Below, piece by piece: positions 8,710 through 20,087 of a stretch of 37,914 nucleotides of DNA. How positions within the stretch are numbered: the first letter of the stretch is position 1; each line of letters begins with the position of its first letter. The position numbers and the translations under genes were made by a program. This stretch comes from a virus (taxonomy: Duplodnaviria; Caudoviricetes), in the IMG/VR virus record IMGVR_UViG_3300017565_000029, positions 1-37,914 of that record; one strand, written 5' to 3'. Under the pieces are notes generated by a model, which made no database searches, had not been told where the DNA came from, and saw only the letters and a program-made list of their open reading frames with translations.

Positions 8710-8786
8710 TGGTTGCGGAGAGAGGACTCGAACCTCCAACCTCCGGGTTATGAGCCCGGCGCGCTGCCAGTTTGCGCTACTCCACG
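8710..8786 (-). tRNA. tRNA-Met(CAU), initiator-like
   Basis: 77-nt cloverleaf: CGTGGAG/CTCCGCA with C1:A72 mismatch, anticodon arm CCGGG-CTCATAA-CCCGG, T loop TTCGAGT, encoded ACCA end. Confidence 0.93.
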
Positions 8787-13517: not shown

Positions 13518-14243
13518 CTACTTCTCGCCGACCGGCCAGTGCTTGTTCGCGTACCGAGATTCCTTGGACGCAAACTGCGAGGTCATCTTTGCGTCTTCGT
13601 GGCCGGATTCGTGGTGTTCGGCCGCTTTAGCATGCACTTCCGCAGCCGCTTCATGAGCCTTTCGACCATGGGTGTTTTCGTCGCCAGACAGATTCCGAGC
13701 TGCAGCAGCGTGGAACTCAGCCTGTTTCCGGTGGTCAGCAGCCTTCTTTTTGTTGGCGATGTTCTTCGGCGCATGCGACTGATCGTGCATATGCATCATG
13801 AGCGCGTTGCCCGCGTCTTGAACCTTCTTCCGTTTCGCCAAGGTGCTCTCAGCACTCGATGCTTGCTTGGCGCTATCGTCGTGCCCCTTCAAGTGGGCGC
13901 GGAAATCATCGCTCCCATCCACAACCTGCCGCGCATGGTATGCCGCGCGTGCGTGAGAGGTAGCAGCGTCACGGTGGATCTTGTATTCTGGATGATCTTC
14001 GCCCTTCTCTGCTGCCAGCTTTCGATGCTTTTCCGCTGCAGCATCATGCTTGTCAGCGGCAACCGAAAGCGGATGGGCACCTGCTTTACCCTTCGGGGCG
14101 ACCGGCTTCGGCGCAGCCGCCTGTCGGCTATCGTCATGAGCCTGCACCACCGAGCCATCGCTGCGGGTGTAGGTATCGACGTGGGCCTTCGTCAGCTCGG
14201 CGAGCGCGCCGGGCTTGCCGAACAGTAGGATGGGTTTTTGCAT
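13518..14243 (-). CDS. His/Ala-rich helical-repeat protein, probable internal head protein
   Basis: Start moved to ATG 14243 because the track start lies inside the promoter; LTKAHVDTYTRSDGSVVQAH then HxxAAxxH repeats. Confidence 0.75.
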   Translation of the reverse strand: MQKPILLFGKPGALAELTKAHVDTYTRSDGSVVQAHDDSRQAAAPKPVAPKGKAGAHPLSVAADKHDAAAEKHRKLAAEKGEDHPEYKIHRDAATSHARAAYHARQVVDGSDDFRAHLKGHDDSAKQASSAESTLAKRKKVQDAGNALMMHMHDQSHAPKNIANKKKAADHRKQAEFHAAAARNLSGDENTHGRKAHEAAAEVHAKAAEHHESGHEDAKMTSQFASKESRYANKHWPVGEK

Positions 14244-14342: not shown

Positions 14343-14600
14343 TTAGCCCAACGTTTCAAGGCCCGGCGTGGCTGGCGTGCCAGACTTGCAGTCTAGTTCG
14401 ATGCCCAAATGCAGCTTCGTGGCCTCCTTGAAGCCGATCCACTCGCCATGCCGGCCGAGGCCGCGAGCAGCCAGCTCACACCGGACAGCGAGCATCAGAT
14501 CGAGGTCGCCACGGACGAACGCCGCCAGCACCTCGGTGGGGAAGGTCTGGACGTGGGCAGCCGCAGCGCTTTCGAGAGATTGGATCTGCTGCGGCATCAT
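14343..14600 (-). CDS. Hypothetical phage protein, 85 aa
   Basis: GGAGG RBS, ATGA overlap; ELAARGL..GEWIGF motif. Confidence 0.75.
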   Translation of the reverse strand: MMPQQIQSLESAAAAHVQTFPTEVLAAFVRGDLDLMLAVRCELAARGLGRHGEWIGFKEATKLHLGIELDCKSGTPATPGLETLG

Positions 14601-14971
14601 GCGCCTCCGAATAGATCACGGCTGGCACCACGACGACGCCCGCCCGAGTACGGCGCGGTCGGCTGCAGGTTCGCCATGATGCCCCACACACGAGCGAAGG
14701 CATCGTGCAGCGGCTTGTTCCTGACGCTTGCCTTAAAATTAGAATATGAGACCCCAAATACCTCGTCCGCCATGGCGCGAGCAACTTCCTCGCGGTTGAT
14801 CAGCGCCCGAAACAGATAGTCGCGGTGCGGTGTACGCTCGACCTTCGCTCCCGGGAAAACGGACTCGATATCACCCTTTCGACGAGCCCTGACGAGCAGC
14901 ATTTTGCTGTCAGGCTGGTTTGCCGCCGGAGTAACAATAGACAAAAACGCACGATTGAGACTTACCCACAT
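14597..14971 (-). CDS. Hypothetical phage protein, 124 aa
   Basis: Start moved to ATG 14971 (AAAGGA RBS); MWVSLNRAFLSIV...LLVRAR...DYLFRA...YSNFK. Confidence 0.75.
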   Translation of the reverse strand: MWVSLNRAFLSIVTPAANQPDSKMLLVRARRKGDIESVFPGAKVERTPHRDYLFRALINREEVARAMADEVFGVSYSNFKASVRNKPLHDAFARVWGIMANLQPTAPYSGGRRRGASRDLFGGA

Positions 14972-14987
14972 GATGATCTTTCCTTTT

Positions 14988-15527
14988 TTAGATGTGTTTC
15001 CAATTTTTCCGGGTTTTGATGCTGGATATCGTCCCCGGACAAACCCCGTATCCCTTCGCCAGCGACCTACCGGTCTCGCCAGCATCCAATCGGGCCCGGA
15101 TGTCCAACACCTGCTGCGTTGTAAGAATGGCCGTTCTTGCTAGTTCGCCTTTTGCGCTCCCGAACTTCATCCTGTTCTTGCTGTTGGCGTCCTGCAGGTT
15201 TTCCAGCTGCGAACCAGCGAGCAGATGATGCGGGTTAACACACGGGCGATTGTCGCAACTATGCATGACGACGCCACCATGACCGCCTGGACGATCGGGG
15301 ATATCTCCCTTGTGGGCTTCATAGCTGGCGCGATGCGTGGTGTATGGCGTGCCACGAAACGAAAATGCCCCGTATCCGTGCGACCCAATCGGGCCCTGCC
15401 ACTCCCAGCAATCGTCCTGTCCGGCGACGGCCGTCCTAGATAGAACGGCGCATTTTAGCGAGCAGACCTTTTCGCTGCGGTGTTTTGTGAATTCAGAGCC
15501 GCAATGCGAGCATATAGCGCATGCCAT
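14988..15527 (-). CDS. HNH homing endonuclease
   Basis: CxxC...CSxxC zinc finger, CWEWQG, HRASY, MHSCDNRPCVNPHHL, C-terminal HTH; GGGAGG RBS. Confidence 0.92.
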   Translation of the reverse strand: MACAICSHCGSEFTKHRSEKVCSLKCAVLSRTAVAGQDDCWEWQGPIGSHGYGAFSFRGTPYTTHRASYEAHKGDIPDRPGGHGGVVMHSCDNRPCVNPHHLLAGSQLENLQDANSKNRMKFGSAKGELARTAILTTQQVLDIRARLDAGETGRSLAKGYGVCPGTISSIKTRKNWKHI

Positions 15528-15605: not shown

Positions 15606-16403
15606 TCAGAGATCGAACAGGCTGCCAGAGTGACCTTTTGATGTCGGCACGAACTTCTGCGCAGGCGGCGGCGGCTTCACACCGGCACCGAGCGCCTCGG
15701 CGATATCGTGGTCGGTGTGCATGTTGAGCGCGTCGTACAGCTTGGCGACCGGGCAGAGGCTGACGGCCTGCGACTCCCAGCCTGCCGCGGCTGGCGTCCC
15801 GCCGACACGCTCGGCCAGGTAGATCCGGGCGACGGACGTCGTGCGGTGGAAATCGCCGAGGAACCCGACAATCCGAACCTTCAGCCCGGTTTCTTCGAAA
15901 GTCTCCCGGACTGCCGTGGCCTGCAGCGACATACCTTCCTCGGCGGTCCCCTTGGGGAACGTGCATTTATAGCCGCCGAAGGCGTTTGTCGGATGCGTCA
16001 GCCATACCCGGCCATCCGGCTCGCGGATGATTACGCCGGCACTGGCGTGCTTACCCTTCGGAGCATGGAACGGCGGCTCGTCGAGGGTATCATCCACCTC
16101 GGGCAGGTATTCCCAGCCCTCGTCGGTATGCGGGTGATCGGACCAAGGCGCGAGCGCCACGCCGTTCAACTCAGCCGGCATCGCCCCGCCAGGCACAACC
16201 GTCGCAACGGCGTCCGGGTCGGTCCACGTTTCCAGCGCTGTGGGCGTCGACGGCTCTTTGATGGTCACAGTCTCGCCGTGGTGGTCTTTCTGTGGATGTT
16301 TTGCAACGTTTTTTGGCCGATCCTTGCGGAAATATCCCTTAACGGGGCGCTCGTTGCGCAAATGTGGGGGAACGTAGGCCTTTAGGAACAGGATTTTCCC
16401 CAT
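15606..16403 (-). CDS. Nudix hydrolase with N-terminal extension
   Basis: FPKGTAEEGMSLQATAVRETFEETGL Nudix box (first conserved Glu replaced by Met); TAATG coupling. Confidence 0.9.
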   Translation of the reverse strand: MGKILFLKAYVPPHLRNERPVKGYFRKDRPKNVAKHPQKDHHGETVTIKEPSTPTALETWTDPDAVATVVPGGAMPAELNGVALAPWSDHPHTDEGWEYLPEVDDTLDEPPFHAPKGKHASAGVIIREPDGRVWLTHPTNAFGGYKCTFPKGTAEEGMSLQATAVRETFEETGLKVRIVGFLGDFHRTTSVARIYLAERVGGTPAAAGWESQAVSLCPVAKLYDALNMHTDHDIAEALGAGVKPPPPAQKFVPTSKGHSGSLFDL

Positions 16404-16903
16404 TACCGAACCCCGACGATCAGGTTGGCAATGCTACTGATCGCGGCCTCGATGTGGCCCTGCGCTTCGCCATCCTTCATATCGCCGTCCTCATGCGCGA
16501 CCGCCACGTCGAGCAGCGAACGAGCAAGCGCCAGGAACAGGGCCTTACCAGGATCGGGATCCTCGTTGGCTTCCGGCAGGCGCTTATGGATATTCGCGCC
16601 GAGCTGCTCGGGAGAGTTCCAGGGCAATGCCTCGTAAGCCGGGTCGCGGCCCATAGCGATATCGCCATACTGGCCGGACAGCTTGTCGATCGCCGCCAGG
16701 GCGCCGTCGTGGGTCAGCTCGTCGAGGTTGTAGCGCTTGCGAACGTCGACCACGGCCGCGCCGAAGGCCCGGACCAGACCGATAACGACGTCGGGATTGC
16801 CTAGTGACGGACGATCACCGGCAGGCCAGCCTAGATCCTCGGCCCGACCACGATCTGCCGCCCGCTCGGGCGATCCCTCAATTTCGCGTTTGTCCATGCT
16901 CAT
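16403..16903 (-). CDS. Acidic helical hypothetical protein, candidate immunity/partner of the ART-kinase protein
   Basis: GGGAG RBS, starts 17 nt after ART stop; role inferred from position only. Confidence 0.7.
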   Translation of the reverse strand: MSMDKREIEGSPERAADRGRAEDLGWPAGDRPSLGNPDVVIGLVRAFGAAVVDVRKRYNLDELTHDGALAAIDKLSGQYGDIAMGRDPAYEALPWNSPEQLGANIHKRLPEANEDPDPGKALFLALARSLLDVAVAHEDGDMKDGEAQGHIEAAISSIANLIVGVR

Positions 16904-16920: not shown

Positions 16921-19900
16921 CTAAATGCCGAGGTCCGGCGGCAACATAAGCAGCTCCAGCTCCAAACGCTGGTGACCACCGGAACCAGGCACCATTGCGC
17001 GCGACAGCACCACGAACCGGCTGTTCGGCAGCGTGGTGACTTCTTTCTCGCCCTTGTATCCGCCGGACCCGAACGACTCGACGGCCTTTGCCCCCTCCGC
17101 GTACCGGATAGTCACGCGGTGCTTGCCGAAGTGCTGCGTCGCCGTCGGGTCGTACGACGTACACATGGGGCCCGTGGCCTGGATGACCGTGCCGACGGGA
17201 GATTTCAGCACCTGCTGCACCATGGCGTCGGTCATGTTCTGCCAGCGGTAGACAGACGTGCCCTCGGGCTGGCTGGTCGCGTGCTCGAGCGCAGCCTTTG
17301 CTACGTCCTTCAGCAGATGGCCGGAGTGGTCCTTTTCCTTCCCGTCGCGGAACAGGGTGTTGTACGAGCCCGACGCCTGCACGGACGTGATGAAGTGGCG
17401 CGCCAGGCTGGAGCCCTGCTTGAATTTCACCTTCGCCGCGGCGATCGCATTTGCCGTGAAGTGCGAAACCTTCTTAGGCTTGAATTTCTCGACCGACGAC
17501 ACCTGGCCGAGCGCGACCCAAAAGCCGAGCTTCTCGTTGGATTTGACCTTGCCAACGGTGGTGCCGAACTTCTTGGGCGGGAACGCTGCAGCGATACCAG
17601 CCACCGAGCCCGCCTCGGTCGCTCGGAACAGCTTCAACGGCTCCGGCGGATTGGCGATTTCGTCGAGCAACGTCACCAAATCCTGGTGGAGCTGCACGAC
17701 GTGCTTAGACGGGTGCTCCGAGATCGGATGGGCGGCGCCGGTGGCTTGGCCGGACTCCTTGTTCAGCGACTTGAACGAGAACGCACGCAACGTCGGCAGA
17801 TCGCCCTTTTTGGCGATTGCGAGCATTTCCTGCTCGACGGCAGCGTTCGCCGCGTTGACGTGGGCCTTGGACGACAGGCCTTTTCCGGGCCCGTTCCAGT
17901 TGGCGTAATCGTGCGCCTTCGGCAGCCGGGCGGGATCCACCGGCAAACGCTTGGGATCGAGCTTCTTCTTCACGGCCTTTACGGCGGCCGGGTATTGCTT
18001 GAGCAAGTCGGCCTTGCGCGCGATCAGGGTGTCGGCCAGCTTCTTCTTTTCGGTCCCTGTACCAGGCCCGTGCAGCATGACCGCGGACAGAATATCGTGG
18101 TCGTCGATCGCCGCGATCTTCGCCACGCCAGCGGCAATGTCGGCCGGCGTGATACCGGCGAACATGGACGACGACTGCGCGTTGATGGCCGGATCTAGCA
18201 GCGTCTTGGTTTCGGTGACCTTCGGCCCGAATGCCTTCTTCGCACCCTGGGCCCGGAACTCCATGGACGCGCCGACGTCGATGCGCACGGCCTGACCTGA
18301 CGGCTTTACCATGACGTTATCGAAGCCTAGGCCGGCGACGTCGTAGTTCGCCAGCCAGGCGTCGGCCGCAAAGCCAGCCTTGACGCTGTGCACCTTGCCC
18401 GAGGACAGCGCCGGCACGTCGTGTTTCAGCGTCGGGTCCATCAGCGAGGCAATGCCAACCTTGCCGTTTTGGACGGCCATGCGCGAGATCGGCGCGGTGA
18501 TGCCAGCCAGCTCGTACAGCTTGGCCGCGAGCACTTCGGATTTTGCGTGGTCTGGATTCTTGGGGAATTTTACGTAGTAGCGCGTTCCGTCCGGGGCCTC
18601 GAACACGCCGCCAGGGTTCGAGCCGGCCTGCGGGCCTACCTGCTTCCAGCCCGAGATATCGAGCGGAGCGGCGTCGTCGGACTGAGCCGGAGCCGCGGCA
18701 GCGGGCTCGCCCTGGTCGACCTTCACCCAGCGCCCGTGTTTGAGCACGAGCATGCCGTCGGCGCCCTGTTTGGTGTCGCCTTCCTTCGGGCCGGACTGTG
18801 TGACGCTGGCGACTTTGGGAGCGGGAGCATCCGCCAGCGATGCCGGCAGGCCACCATCGTATTTGAAATAGCCCTTCTTCTGCTTCGACAGCGCAAGGGC
18901 GTGCCCGTGATCCAGCGCTTTGTCGTGGCTATGATAGTCCGTCGTGGTGGAAAGACCGTCGGTGCCGATCTTGCCCCAATGCTTGGTGACCTTCGAACCA
19001 TCGACGGTCACCTTGTAGAATTTGTTGTGACCGTCGCTGGTGTGGTGCAGCGTGATGGAATGCGAGGCGGGCTCAGGCGGCGACGCTGATGCCGTCACCT
19101 TGGCGACGCGCGGCGGCTTGGGAGCGGCAGGTTTGGCCGCGGCTGCAGCCTTTTCCTTGACGTACGCCTTCTGGTCTGGCGTGAGCTTTTTCCAGAGGTT
19201 CGACCAGGAATCGGGGTGCTTGCTCGTCGGGCTGCCGGCGGCAAACCACTTCATCAATCCCGCTTCCTGCGACGGCGTGATCTCCGGCGGCGCAGCGGGA
19301 GCGACGGGAGCCGGAGAGGTCGCCTCGACCTTCGCCACCTTCGGCGCGGGAGCGGCCTCGGGAGCCGGAGCGCCGAGCGCGGCCAAGATCTTCGCCTGAG
19401 CGGCAGAGAGCTTTTTCCCGTAGGTATTGACGCCGAACTTCAGCGCCGCGACCTTCTCGGCGTCGCCGGTAGCGGCAGCATCCTTCAGCGCGGCCAGCTT
19501 CTTGTTCACCGTGCCTGCGTTGACGTTCGTGTCGGGCAGCGTCATGCCGGCCCAATCCACGGCCGCTAGGGCGAGCGTCGCGGGATCCGGCTTCGGCGGC
19601 TCCGGTGCAACCGGTTTGGCCTCGTCCGGCGGCGACAAGTGCGACCACTGCGCGCCGGTAGCCTGGCCGATCTGGCCGAGCAGCTCCGACTGCTTGTCCT
19701 TCGGCAGCGCGTAGAAGGCCTTCCACTGAGCCGGCGTCGGGTTCTTGCCCTCGCTGGCCGTCTTCTTCCACATCGACACCGCAGCCGACTGCGACGCGGC
19801 AGCCTGCAGCTCGGCGGCCAAACCCTTGACCTTGGCAGATTGCTCGTGCGGCGCCAGGCCGTGCAGCTTGCCGTCGGCCTGCAGCTTTTTGACCGCGGCG

Positions 19901-20064
19901 ACGTGATAGTGGGAGACGGCAACATGGTGCGCGTCGGCAGGAGCCTGTTTGTCCCCGCCGACCTTGTGCCAGCGCGGCGGGTTGCCATAGAGGGCATAGC
20001 CCGTCTGGTTCTTCAGGGCTTTGACGAACAGGATCGGGAAGGTGGAGACAGAGGGCGTCGACAT
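16921..20064 (-). CDS. Multidomain effector: WGR domain, atypical (HipA/PI3-4K-like) kinase, R-S-E ADP-ribosyltransferase
   Basis: WGR: HNKFY...HWGKIG...KQKKGY; kinase: GSNPGG, YYVK, SEVLA, LANYD, DNV, RIDVG; ART: VYRW, MCTS, GEKEV..LPNSRFVV. Confidence 0.82.
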   Translation of the reverse strand: MSTPSVSTFPILFVKALKNQTGYALYGNPPRWHKVGGDKQAPADAHHVAVSHYHVAAVKKLQADGKLHGLAPHEQSAKVKGLAAELQAAASQSAAVSMWKKTASEGKNPTPAQWKAFYALPKDKQSELLGQIGQATGAQWSHLSPPDEAKPVAPEPPKPDPATLALAAVDWAGMTLPDTNVNAGTVNKKLAALKDAAATGDAEKVAALKFGVNTYGKKLSAAQAKILAALGAPAPEAAPAPKVAKVEATSPAPVAPAAPPEITPSQEAGLMKWFAAGSPTSKHPDSWSNLWKKLTPDQKAYVKEKAAAAAKPAAPKPPRVAKVTASASPPEPASHSITLHHTSDGHNKFYKVTVDGSKVTKHWGKIGTDGLSTTTDYHSHDKALDHGHALALSKQKKGYFKYDGGLPASLADAPAPKVASVTQSGPKEGDTKQGADGMLVLKHGRWVKVDQGEPAAAAPAQSDDAAPLDISGWKQVGPQAGSNPGGVFEAPDGTRYYVKFPKNPDHAKSEVLAAKLYELAGITAPISRMAVQNGKVGIASLMDPTLKHDVPALSSGKVHSVKAGFAADAWLANYDVAGLGFDNVMVKPSGQAVRIDVGASMEFRAQGAKKAFGPKVTETKTLLDPAINAQSSSMFAGITPADIAAGVAKIAAIDDHDILSAVMLHGPGTGTEKKKLADTLIARKADLLKQYPAAVKAVKKKLDPKRLPVDPARLPKAHDYANWNGPGKGLSSKAHVNAANAAVEQEMLAIAKKGDLPTLRAFSFKSLNKESGQATGAAHPISEHPSKHVVQLHQDLVTLLDEIANPPEPLKLFRATEAGSVAGIAAAFPPKKFGTTVGKVKSNEKLGFWVALGQVSSVEKFKPKKVSHFTANAIAAAKVKFKQGSSLARHFITSVQASGSYNTLFRDGKEKDHSGHLLKDVAKAALEHATSQPEGTSVYRWQNMTDAMVQQVLKSPVGTVIQATGPMCTSYDPTATQHFGKHRVTIRYAEGAKAVESFGSGGYKGEKEVTTLPNSRFVVLSRAMVPGSGGHQRLELELLMLPPDLGI

Positions 20065-20071
20065 ACCCGAC

Positions 20072-20087
20072 AGGGTAAGATCACGAC
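20072..20087 (-). promoter_or_regulatory. Late promoter motif, leaderless
   Basis: GTCGTGA-TCT-TACCCT, 7 nt, ATG(20064); 16-bp core identical to portal promoter. Confidence 0.7.

Follow-up and report, generated by a model that had tools for sequence, protein, structure and literature searches.

The virus record IMGVR_UViG_3300017565_000029 (IMG/VR; Caudoviricetes), whose full stretch of 37,914 nucleotides is called the window here, carries on its minus strand a gene for a 1047-aa protein in which an atypical kinase is followed by an ADP-ribosyltransferase (ART). Comparison with relatives indicates that this kinase-ART gene is the first gene of a cassette conserved among proteobacterial myophages of ~90 kb, and that the functional unit is a cassette of four genes, encoding the kinase-ART protein, an acidic 166-aa protein, a Nudix hydrolase and a 124-aa protein. 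The reading that we favor, and to which we give slightly better than even weight, is that kinase, ART and Nudix would form a head-packed and injected effector kit, with the acidic partner restraining the ART. An earlier note on this DNA had placed a WGR domain, a kinase and an ART in one late protein, and this holds. It had missed the four-gene cassette, the exchange of the ART together with the 166-aa protein, the tracking of the Nudix by the kinase, and the recurrence of all three enzymes in HopAG1 of Pseudomonas syringae.

The kinase and the ADP-ribosyltransferase

Domain-wise profile and structure searches, as the earlier note had proposed, confirmed both enzyme folds. In an AlphaFold model of residues 465-1047, built from 112 sequences (predicted local distance difference test, pLDDT, 90; predicted template modeling score, pTM, 0.56), the kinase (aa 466-699) matches H. 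pylori CtkA (3akj) with Z 16.4 and a root-mean-square deviation (rmsd) of 3.2 over 207 aligned residues. Further fold matches are to CotH (Z 14.0), PI4KII (13.9), MavQ (13.0) and HipA (11.9). The modeled fold is that of a bilobal atypical kinase, including a helical C-lobe that aligns to CtkA. The catalytic residues recognized earlier, K499, E510, D575, N583 and D596, are kept in 120/120 homologues (counts out of 120 refer throughout to the best 120 of 305 matches to the kinase-ART protein in one search) and in 71-72 of a more diverse set of 72 domains, the exception being a degenerate tandem copy. Across those 72 domains, W570, N573, N583 and G598 are invariant and R594 is nearly so.

The canonical catalytic loop of CtkA/PI3K-type kinases reads D-R/x-H-x-x-N. 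The loop of the phage kinase is unusual, D575-x7-N583 with neither Arg nor His, and the spacer varies from 5 to 13 in relatives. Compared with the CtkA, HipA and PI4KII kinases (PDB 3akj, 4pla, 4pu3), the fold and the K/E/D/N/D catalytic set are alike, whereas the phage kinase lacks the Arg-His after the Asp, has R594 and R604-A-Q-G, and shares only 9-18% identity. The family is large, with 4,622 clusters at E 0.001 and 3,560 at 1e-10. The isolated domain has no Pfam match at E 1, and relatives give only sub-threshold matches to HipA_C.

The ART (aa 864-1042) matches C3bot2 (1r45) in the model with Z 14.0, rmsd 3.0 over 172 residues, and VIP2 with Z 12.7. Its catalytic residues are as the earlier note had read them: R940, C968-T-S970 and E1006-K-E1008. 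The serine is present in 46/46 sequences and both glutamates in 45/46, the remaining one being cut by its contig, while position 940 is R in 34/46 and K in 12/46. A full Pfam scan of the protein gave only a trace of the ART, and the isolated domain matched ADPrib_exo_Tox at E 0.0027, below the cut-off. No PHROG family was matched at E 0.01, and Foldseek returned weak rows to Alt-type proteins at E about 7e-5. An ExE motif goes with arginine as the ADP-ribose acceptor, a rule that has exceptions; the ART is probably active and of the arginine type.

Joint exchange of the ART and its partner, and joint inheritance of kinase and Nudix

The 166-aa gene lies directly after the ART in 51/51 loci with a full ART (near-duplicates included), 50 of which also have the Nudix and 46 the 124-aa gene. 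Where a full ART is lacking (19 loci), L055 alone has the 166-aa gene, its ART being cut by the contig end. A locus identical to the window (L145) stands in for it or is omitted from the counts.

Exchange of the ART was followed in 68 non-redundant loci, 63 of them typed. The ART and partner trees show 3 and 4 changes of ART type, respectively, the kinase and Nudix trees 14 and 20. Pairwise identities correlate at 0.72 for ART and partner and at 0.61 for kinase and Nudix (0/500 permutations each), and at 0.08 for kinase and ART (39/500). The nearest partner has the same ART type in 60/63 cases, the nearest kinase in 43/63, and pairs of loci with 72-77% kinase identity can show 20-27% identity in the ART and 17-25% in the partner. 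The partner is net negative in 74/74 loci and the middle domain plus ART net positive in 50/74; in the window the two charges are -11 and +13, respectively. These comparisons indicate that the ART and the 166-aa protein are exchanged as one unit, like a toxin-immunity pair, and that kinase and Nudix are inherited jointly.

It is likely that the 166-aa protein is the cognate binding partner of the ART; that it is also an inhibitor is evenly balanced. We propose that the ART, diversified with its acidic partner, modifies host arginines, and that the partner would bind, restrain or chaperone it. A complex prediction for the middle domain plus ART with the 166-aa protein scored 0.25, the mark being 0.32, which speaks neither for nor against the pairing; no usable structural match was found for the 166-aa protein. 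For the Nudix, the best sequence match in the PDB is an Ap4A hydrolase.

A further observation concerns R604. Eleven loci (L025, L026, L028, L039, L040, L047, L049, L059, L168, L177 and L181) have a second kinase fused to a Nudix. In 11/11 of them R604 is missing from the copy linked to the ART, whose catalytic loop is longer and whose activation segment is Gly-rich, while the Nudix-fused copy keeps R604. In loci with a plain Nudix the residue is kept in 52/52 (the script scored 51; in L163 the Arg is kept on inspection); the tally covers loci with a complete Nudix and leaves out 12 others. This suggests an altered substrate for the ART-linked copy after duplication.

Late expression and probable packaging

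The promoter core before the kinase-ART gene is identical to that of the portal gene in 16/16 bases (20087-20072 and 10857-10842), as the earlier note had claimed. Since the core ends only 7 nt ahead of the ATG, a near-leaderless mRNA is likely. The element GTCGTGA lies 22-23 nt upstream of six ATGs, those of the kinase-ART protein, terminase, portal, 383-aa open reading frame (ORF), helicase and head protease, and 40/50 relatives also have it upstream. This distribution suggests that GTCGTGA is a late promoter common to the family, whose mRNAs would be nearly leaderless. The window has ten copies on the minus strand (1351, 6479, 8445, 8604, 10857, 13513, 14297, 20087, 20602 and 25484) and one on the plus strand; the six at 22-23 nt from an ATG carry a -10-like hexamer.

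The N-terminal KA tag, also seen earlier, occurs as KA or KS in 104/120 homologues, where shuffled sequences give a mean of 5.6 and a maximum of 13. In the window it is found in the protease, the helicase, the 383-aa ORF, the portal and the Nudix, with the terminase lacking it, and in phage Mecenats66 a K-A/K-S tag is seen by inspection in the capsid, portal, scaffold, protease, helicase, kinase-ART and Nudix proteins. N-terminal regions of 70 residues for the Nudix and 45 for the two small proteins have the tag in 47/77 Nudix, 2/68 166-aa and 7/66 124-aa sequences. The prohead protease of SPO1/Twort-like phages cleaves after Lys in a K-S site, and the window portal is related to SPO1/Twort-like portals. 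The tag is likely a prohead-protease/packaging signal.

In Yersinia phage fHe-Yen8-01 (GenBank OR620963) the kinase-ART orthologue g129, the 166-aa protein g130 and the Nudix g131 are labeled particle-associated, while g132 is unlabeled; we take the label as modest evidence for packaging. The junction of the same kinase with MuF, minor-capsid and portal domains in other phages counts in the same direction. Taken together, packaging of the kinase-ART protein in the head is likely, and injection into the host is probable. The protein would be made late, loaded into the head with the Nudix via the common tag, and delivered with it along with the phage DNA.

Alternatively, the cassette might act within the producing cell, or while the head matures, and not be delivered to the next host; it could serve in toxin-antitoxin-like control, superinfection exclusion or auto-modification of virion proteins. 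The late promoter, the labeling of the partner gene as particle-associated too, and the toxin-antitoxin-like pairing of ART and partner fit such a role. However, the KA tag is common to head proteins, a diversifying ART cassette suits an arms race with host targets, and homologous kinase and ART domains are found on delivery domains of type VII (T7SS) and type III (T3SS) secretion systems. We therefore consider action in the producing cell improbable.

Two other genes share these features. The 1515-aa SNF2-type helicase, which has the same promoter and KA tag, is likely another head-packed enzyme; it occupies the same place in Mecenats66 and is absent from that place in fHe-Yen8-01. A 241-aa His/Lys/Ala-rich ORF, with a KA tag, its own promoter copy and a short basic motif in common with Nudix N-termini, is a candidate internal head protein.

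HopAG1 and the possible role of the kinase

A genome search with the core of the protein returned four P. syringae-group loci with the kinase and the same N-extended Nudix. The protein of one of them (L093) has an N-terminal R-S-ExE ART, the kinase (40% over 225 aa) and the Nudix of the window (42% over 186 aa). With a record named hopAG1 it shares 81% identity, and it is followed by GH5 and VRP3 genes, presumably in the gene order hopAG1-hopAH1-hopAI1. In HopAG1, 17/17 checked kinase positions are identical, and the window Nudix is 42% identical to its C-terminal part.

HopAG1 is described as a type III effector of P. syringae (PMC9963460, PMC4981494). Hulin et al. give it an N-terminal ART and a C-terminal Nudix and count it in 213 genomes; the main text of that paper has no "kinase", and where it counts the effector it gives no substrate (PMC9963460). 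The open literature yielded no description of the kinase family, of a kinase in HopAG1 or of an ART-kinase-Nudix triad, subscription journals, bioRxiv supplements and figures lying outside that search. Of 110 proteins found with HopAG1, all have the kinase, 60 an ART (assuming one in eight HopAG1-type rows), 38 a Nudix and 89 either ART or Nudix; of 74 weaker matches, 52 have an ART and 11 are members of the phage family.

HopAG1 is like the cassette in its kinase family, its N-extended Nudix and its R-S-ExE ART. It differs in being a single chain, ART-kinase-Nudix, secreted into plants, whereas the phage has a late gene for kinase-middle-ART, a separate Nudix gene and an acidic cognate partner, and the two ARTs show only a distant likeness (probability 7%). 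A phage origin of HopAG1 was entertained and dropped: a midpoint-rooted FastTree nests HopAG1 among the phage Nudix-kinases, whereas IQ-TREE, run on 50 of the 239 sequences plus an outgroup, places it outside them.

The three activities recur in other arrangements. Nudix-kinase and Nudix-kinase-ART fusions occur within the phage family. Elsewhere, MuF or minor-capsid domains precede kinase-ART, and there are portal-domain fusions, WXG100-Nudix-kinase-ART, ART-kinase in Vibrio, PARP-like-Nudix-kinase, and kinases joined to a Scabin-like ART, a SidE-type phosphodiesterase (SidE-PDE) or a 2H domain (2H-kinase-ART). Of 105 kinase proteins outside the phage family, 21 have an ART and 16 a Nudix. 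In the actinophage Gordonia phage Forza (L004), unrelated to the window phage, the portal, a kinase-family gene and an annotated ADP-ribosyltransferase gene are consecutive within gp77-80.

The kinase is constant across ART swaps, tracks the Nudix and is kept with ART and Nudix in HopAG1, which a substrate common to bacteria and plants would explain best. We propose that kinase and co-packed Nudix act together on a substrate of the ADP-ribose or nucleotide type. That the substrate is ADP-ribose, NAD or a nucleotide rather than a specific protein comes, in our judgment, close to an even prospect; an independent protein kinase ranks second and is a tentative possibility. In a coupled version, the ART would transfer or release ADP-ribose, the kinase would phosphorylate that moiety or a breakdown product, and the Nudix would cleave the pyrophosphate, leaving a mark or metabolite poorly handled by host ADP-ribose erasers or NAD-based defenses. 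It is tempting to go further and see the ART, kinase and Nudix (or SidE-type phosphodiesterase) as one three-step pathway in which the kinase phosphorylates ADP-ribose or NAD itself, which we regard as rather unlikely.

A different explanation accepts packaging and injection, and holds that three independent weapons are clustered merely as head cargo: the kinase a HipA/CtkA-like Ser/Thr kinase, the ART hitting another protein, and the Nudix removing alarmones such as Ap4A. The top folds of the kinase (CtkA, CotH, HipA), the nearness of the Nudix to Ap4A hydrolases, the uncoupled kinase and ART trees, the many kinase proteins without ART or Nudix, and the habit of polyvalent proteins, as described, of combining unrelated enzymes all suit it. 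On the other hand, a type III effector that acts in plant cells retains all three enzymes together, the kinase has been fused repeatedly to different ART clades, Nudix, SidE-PDE or 2H, and the R604-type kinase remains with the Nudix after duplication. We judge the independent weapons unlikely, if still a serious competitor.

Several points weigh against the effector kit as we propose it. The best structural matches of the kinase are protein and lipid kinases. Outside the phage family, only 39 of the 105 kinase proteins, and 22/46 in a second set, have an ART or Nudix in the protein or locus, and there are stand-alone chromosomal kinases in Rhodopseudomonas (L083, L086 and L088, about 242 aa), which are also the simplest proteins of the family for biochemistry. 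In the account of polyvalent proteins in PMC5512222, these usually combine unrelated activities and the ART is their commonest enzyme, so that co-occurrence is partly expected. The loss of R604 in the 11 duplication loci is probably one event. The co-swapping of ART and partner may stem from adjacency alone, and the kinase-Nudix correlation may be mere phage ancestry. The particle label in fHe-Yen8-01 is broad (41/92 genes shown, including terminase, primase and methyltransferases), the literature search found no paper behind it, and the idea that the partner stays behind in the producer cell is weakened by the label on g130. Finally, Bordetella phage PHB04 is related through its portal but lacks any match to the kinase-ART protein, so that the protein is dispensable in the wider phage group.

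The N-terminal half and the WGR domain

Within the protein, the comparisons point to kinase-middle-ART as the conserved machine, and to WGR as optional. The kinase + ART core is present in 120/120 homologues, and the N-terminal half ranges from 340 to 1224 aa in nearly all of them. Among 24 relatives scanned, a few have GNAT or ART-PolyVal in this half, and some relatives have LPD38. The earlier note was right about two RWxKV motifs, at aa 31 and 445. Its repeated VNA...GD helical module stands in part: the window protein has one clear copy, without a family match, and a second likeness (aa 736-756) reaches only 36% probability over 22 columns, while two copies occur in 111/120 homologues.

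The WGR domain is a true Pfam match (PF05406, aa 340-399, E 6e-12) with the motif reading WGK; a whole-protein sequence search of the PDB returned only a weak WGR match. Relative to the near relative L071, it is the fastest-changing domain, with 47% identity versus 85-93% for the other domains, and with a ratio of nonsynonymous to synonymous substitution rates (dN/dS) of 0.54 versus 0.11 in the kinase and 0.14 in the ART, the range over kinase, middle domain and ART being 0.08-0.14. The ratios indicate purifying selection on the kinase, middle domain and ART, and much less on WGR.

The earlier note had pictured an injected dual modifier guided by nucleic acid. The folds, the late promoter and likely virion packaging are supported; guidance by nucleic acid is not supported as the family's mechanism. 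In such a scheme WGR would sense or bind nucleic acid and guide or activate both enzymes, as in PARP1/2, and its recurrence in 38/120 homologues, usually directly before the kinase, speaks for it. However, WGR is absent in 82/120 and encoded by a separate ORF in L019, its motif Arg is replaced by Lys, and the domains are joined by Pro/Ala linkers. Neither an H-Y-E PARP catalytic domain nor a PARP regulatory domain was found in the window protein by Pfam or fold comparison, the ART having the R-S-E fold. Guidance by WGR is, then, highly improbable. Given its occurrence, the variable N-terminal half and the high dN/dS, WGR is better seen as an optional add-on, possibly a nucleic-acid tether in some members.

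Comparison with other systems

T4 Alt and the Alt/VIP2 clade are described as virion-packed R-S-E ARTs (PMC9503650, PMC5512222), and MuF-ART head cargo offers a second comparison (PMC9503650, PMC7824862). The kinase-ART protein is like the former in its R-S-E ART fold, its late/head context and its predicted delivery with DNA; the kinase fused to the ART, an N-terminal half that varies, the partner encoded downstream and the Nudix set it apart from T4 Alt. MuF polymorphic toxins are described as having a head carrier, a swappable C-terminal toxin and a small downstream candidate immunity ORF (PMC5576092), and the cassette shares with them a swappable C-terminal module, here a putative toxin, and the cognate small downstream ORF. 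In contrast, the window protein has no Pfam or NCBIfam match to the MuF domain and its partner has 166 aa; the words kinase and Nudix are absent from the main text of that paper (PMC5576092).

Polyvalent proteins likewise bring several enzyme domains together in one large late/head-region protein. As described, they carry an ART of the H-Y-D type and a kinase without the C-terminal subdomain (PMC5512222), whereas in the window protein the ART is R-S-E, the CtkA-like C-lobe is complete and no match to Kinase-PolyVal was obtained. Pfam found no H-Y-D ART or LPD domain in it, and some relatives have them. We regard the kinase-ART protein as working like T4 Alt and MuF-ART head cargo, and not as MuF, polyvalent-type, PARP-like or HopAG1 itself.

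Genomic context

The window is a linear virus record with an estimated completeness of 41%, and its DNA occurs in soil metagenome runs. The kinase-ART ORF is real (Table 1). Downstream of it, on the same strand, lie the terminase, portal, large helicase and head protease. The closest relative, 88% identical in the core, comes from a contig of 92,981 bp that is binned as Mesorhizobium; the next are binned as Geminicoccus and Microvirga, which makes a host among the alphaproteobacteria likely. The portal has relatives at 52-68% in Touem01, ST4, Dolphis, Jeremy, phiT5282EW, ECML-606-1, fHe-Yen8-01, PHB04 and Mecenats66, the last described as a myovirus (PMC9503643). The kinase-ART protein is matched, over kinase or kinase+ART, in 8/9 of them. 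The earlier note knew of no characterized protein of this architecture; with 305 homologues and eight cultured phages, the architecture is not rare. PHB04 (L214) has no cassette, and near its portal are annotated a (p)ppGpp hydrolase, a Ser/Thr phosphatase, a large methylase and RtcB, a different cargo set.

The 124-aa protein has a confident model (pLDDT 93), for which the best Z was 4.0, no Foldseek match was found at E 0.001, and the Atlas clusters are unnamed. Its invariant residues are W, R, R, DY, R and NFK, and its gene is sometimes on the opposite strand. Several relatives have a similar ~700-bp gap between the Nudix and 124-aa genes, where the window has the HNH gene.

Table 1. Features of the kinase-ART cassette and of other genes in the window.
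Feature	Position	Strand	Remark
Kinase-ART protein, 1047 aa	16921..20064	-	ORF call; start at 20064, end at 16921
Putative late promoter core	20072..20087	-	same 16 bases as before the portal gene
Hydrophobic-x-K-A tag, aa 10-16	20017..20037	-	common to head proteins
First RWxKV motif, aa 31-35	19960..19974	-	
Small helical module, aa 166-232	19369..19569	-	in 119/120 homologues
WGR domain, aa 335-402	18859..19062	-	accessory
Second RWxKV motif, aa 445-449	18718..18732	-	
CtkA/PI4K-like atypical kinase domain, aa 465-700	17965..18672	-	fold match; HopAG1 middle domain of same family
Middle helix-hairpin-helix domain, aa 701-815	17620..17964	-	co-varies with ART; no family match
R-S-ExE ADP-ribosyltransferase domain, aa 816-1047	16924..17619	-	fold core 864-1042
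Acidic 166-aa protein	16403..16903	-	candidate ART inhibitor/immunity partner; no KA tag
Nudix hydrolase	15606..16403	-	conserved N-terminal extension; KA tag
HNH endonuclease gene	14988..15527	-	inside cassette, not a conserved member
Conserved 124-aa protein	14597..14971	-	follows kinase/Nudix, also without this ART
241-aa His/Lys/Ala-rich ORF	13518-14243	-	
tRNA-Met gene	8710-8786	-	between portal and 383-aa ORF
SNF2-type helicase, 1515 aa	1910-6457	-	between 383-aa ORF and head protease

Significance

Virion-delivered ARTs are already known, but the literature searches turned up neither a kinase of this fold in a virion, nor an ART-partner cassette that can be swapped, nor the triad. The analysis brings out a large kinase family lying below the thresholds of Pfam, PHROG (no family for the kinase-ART protein at E 0.01) and NCBIfam. 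If the three-step pathway were true, it would mean a new protein modification or metabolite beyond the reach of host erasers and NAD-based immune signaling, delivered from phage heads, by actinobacterial T7SS and as P. syringae HopAG1, and thousands of kinase clusters would turn out to be kinases of ADP-ribose or NAD in use across kingdoms. E. coli phage ECML-606-1 and the P. putida phages Jeremy and Dolphis are tractable, non-pathogenic models, in which the chemistry apparently common with a widespread plant-pathogen effector, HopAG1, can be addressed. The prediction is that the phage modifications would appear in the first minutes of infection, where they may counter NAD-based defenses.

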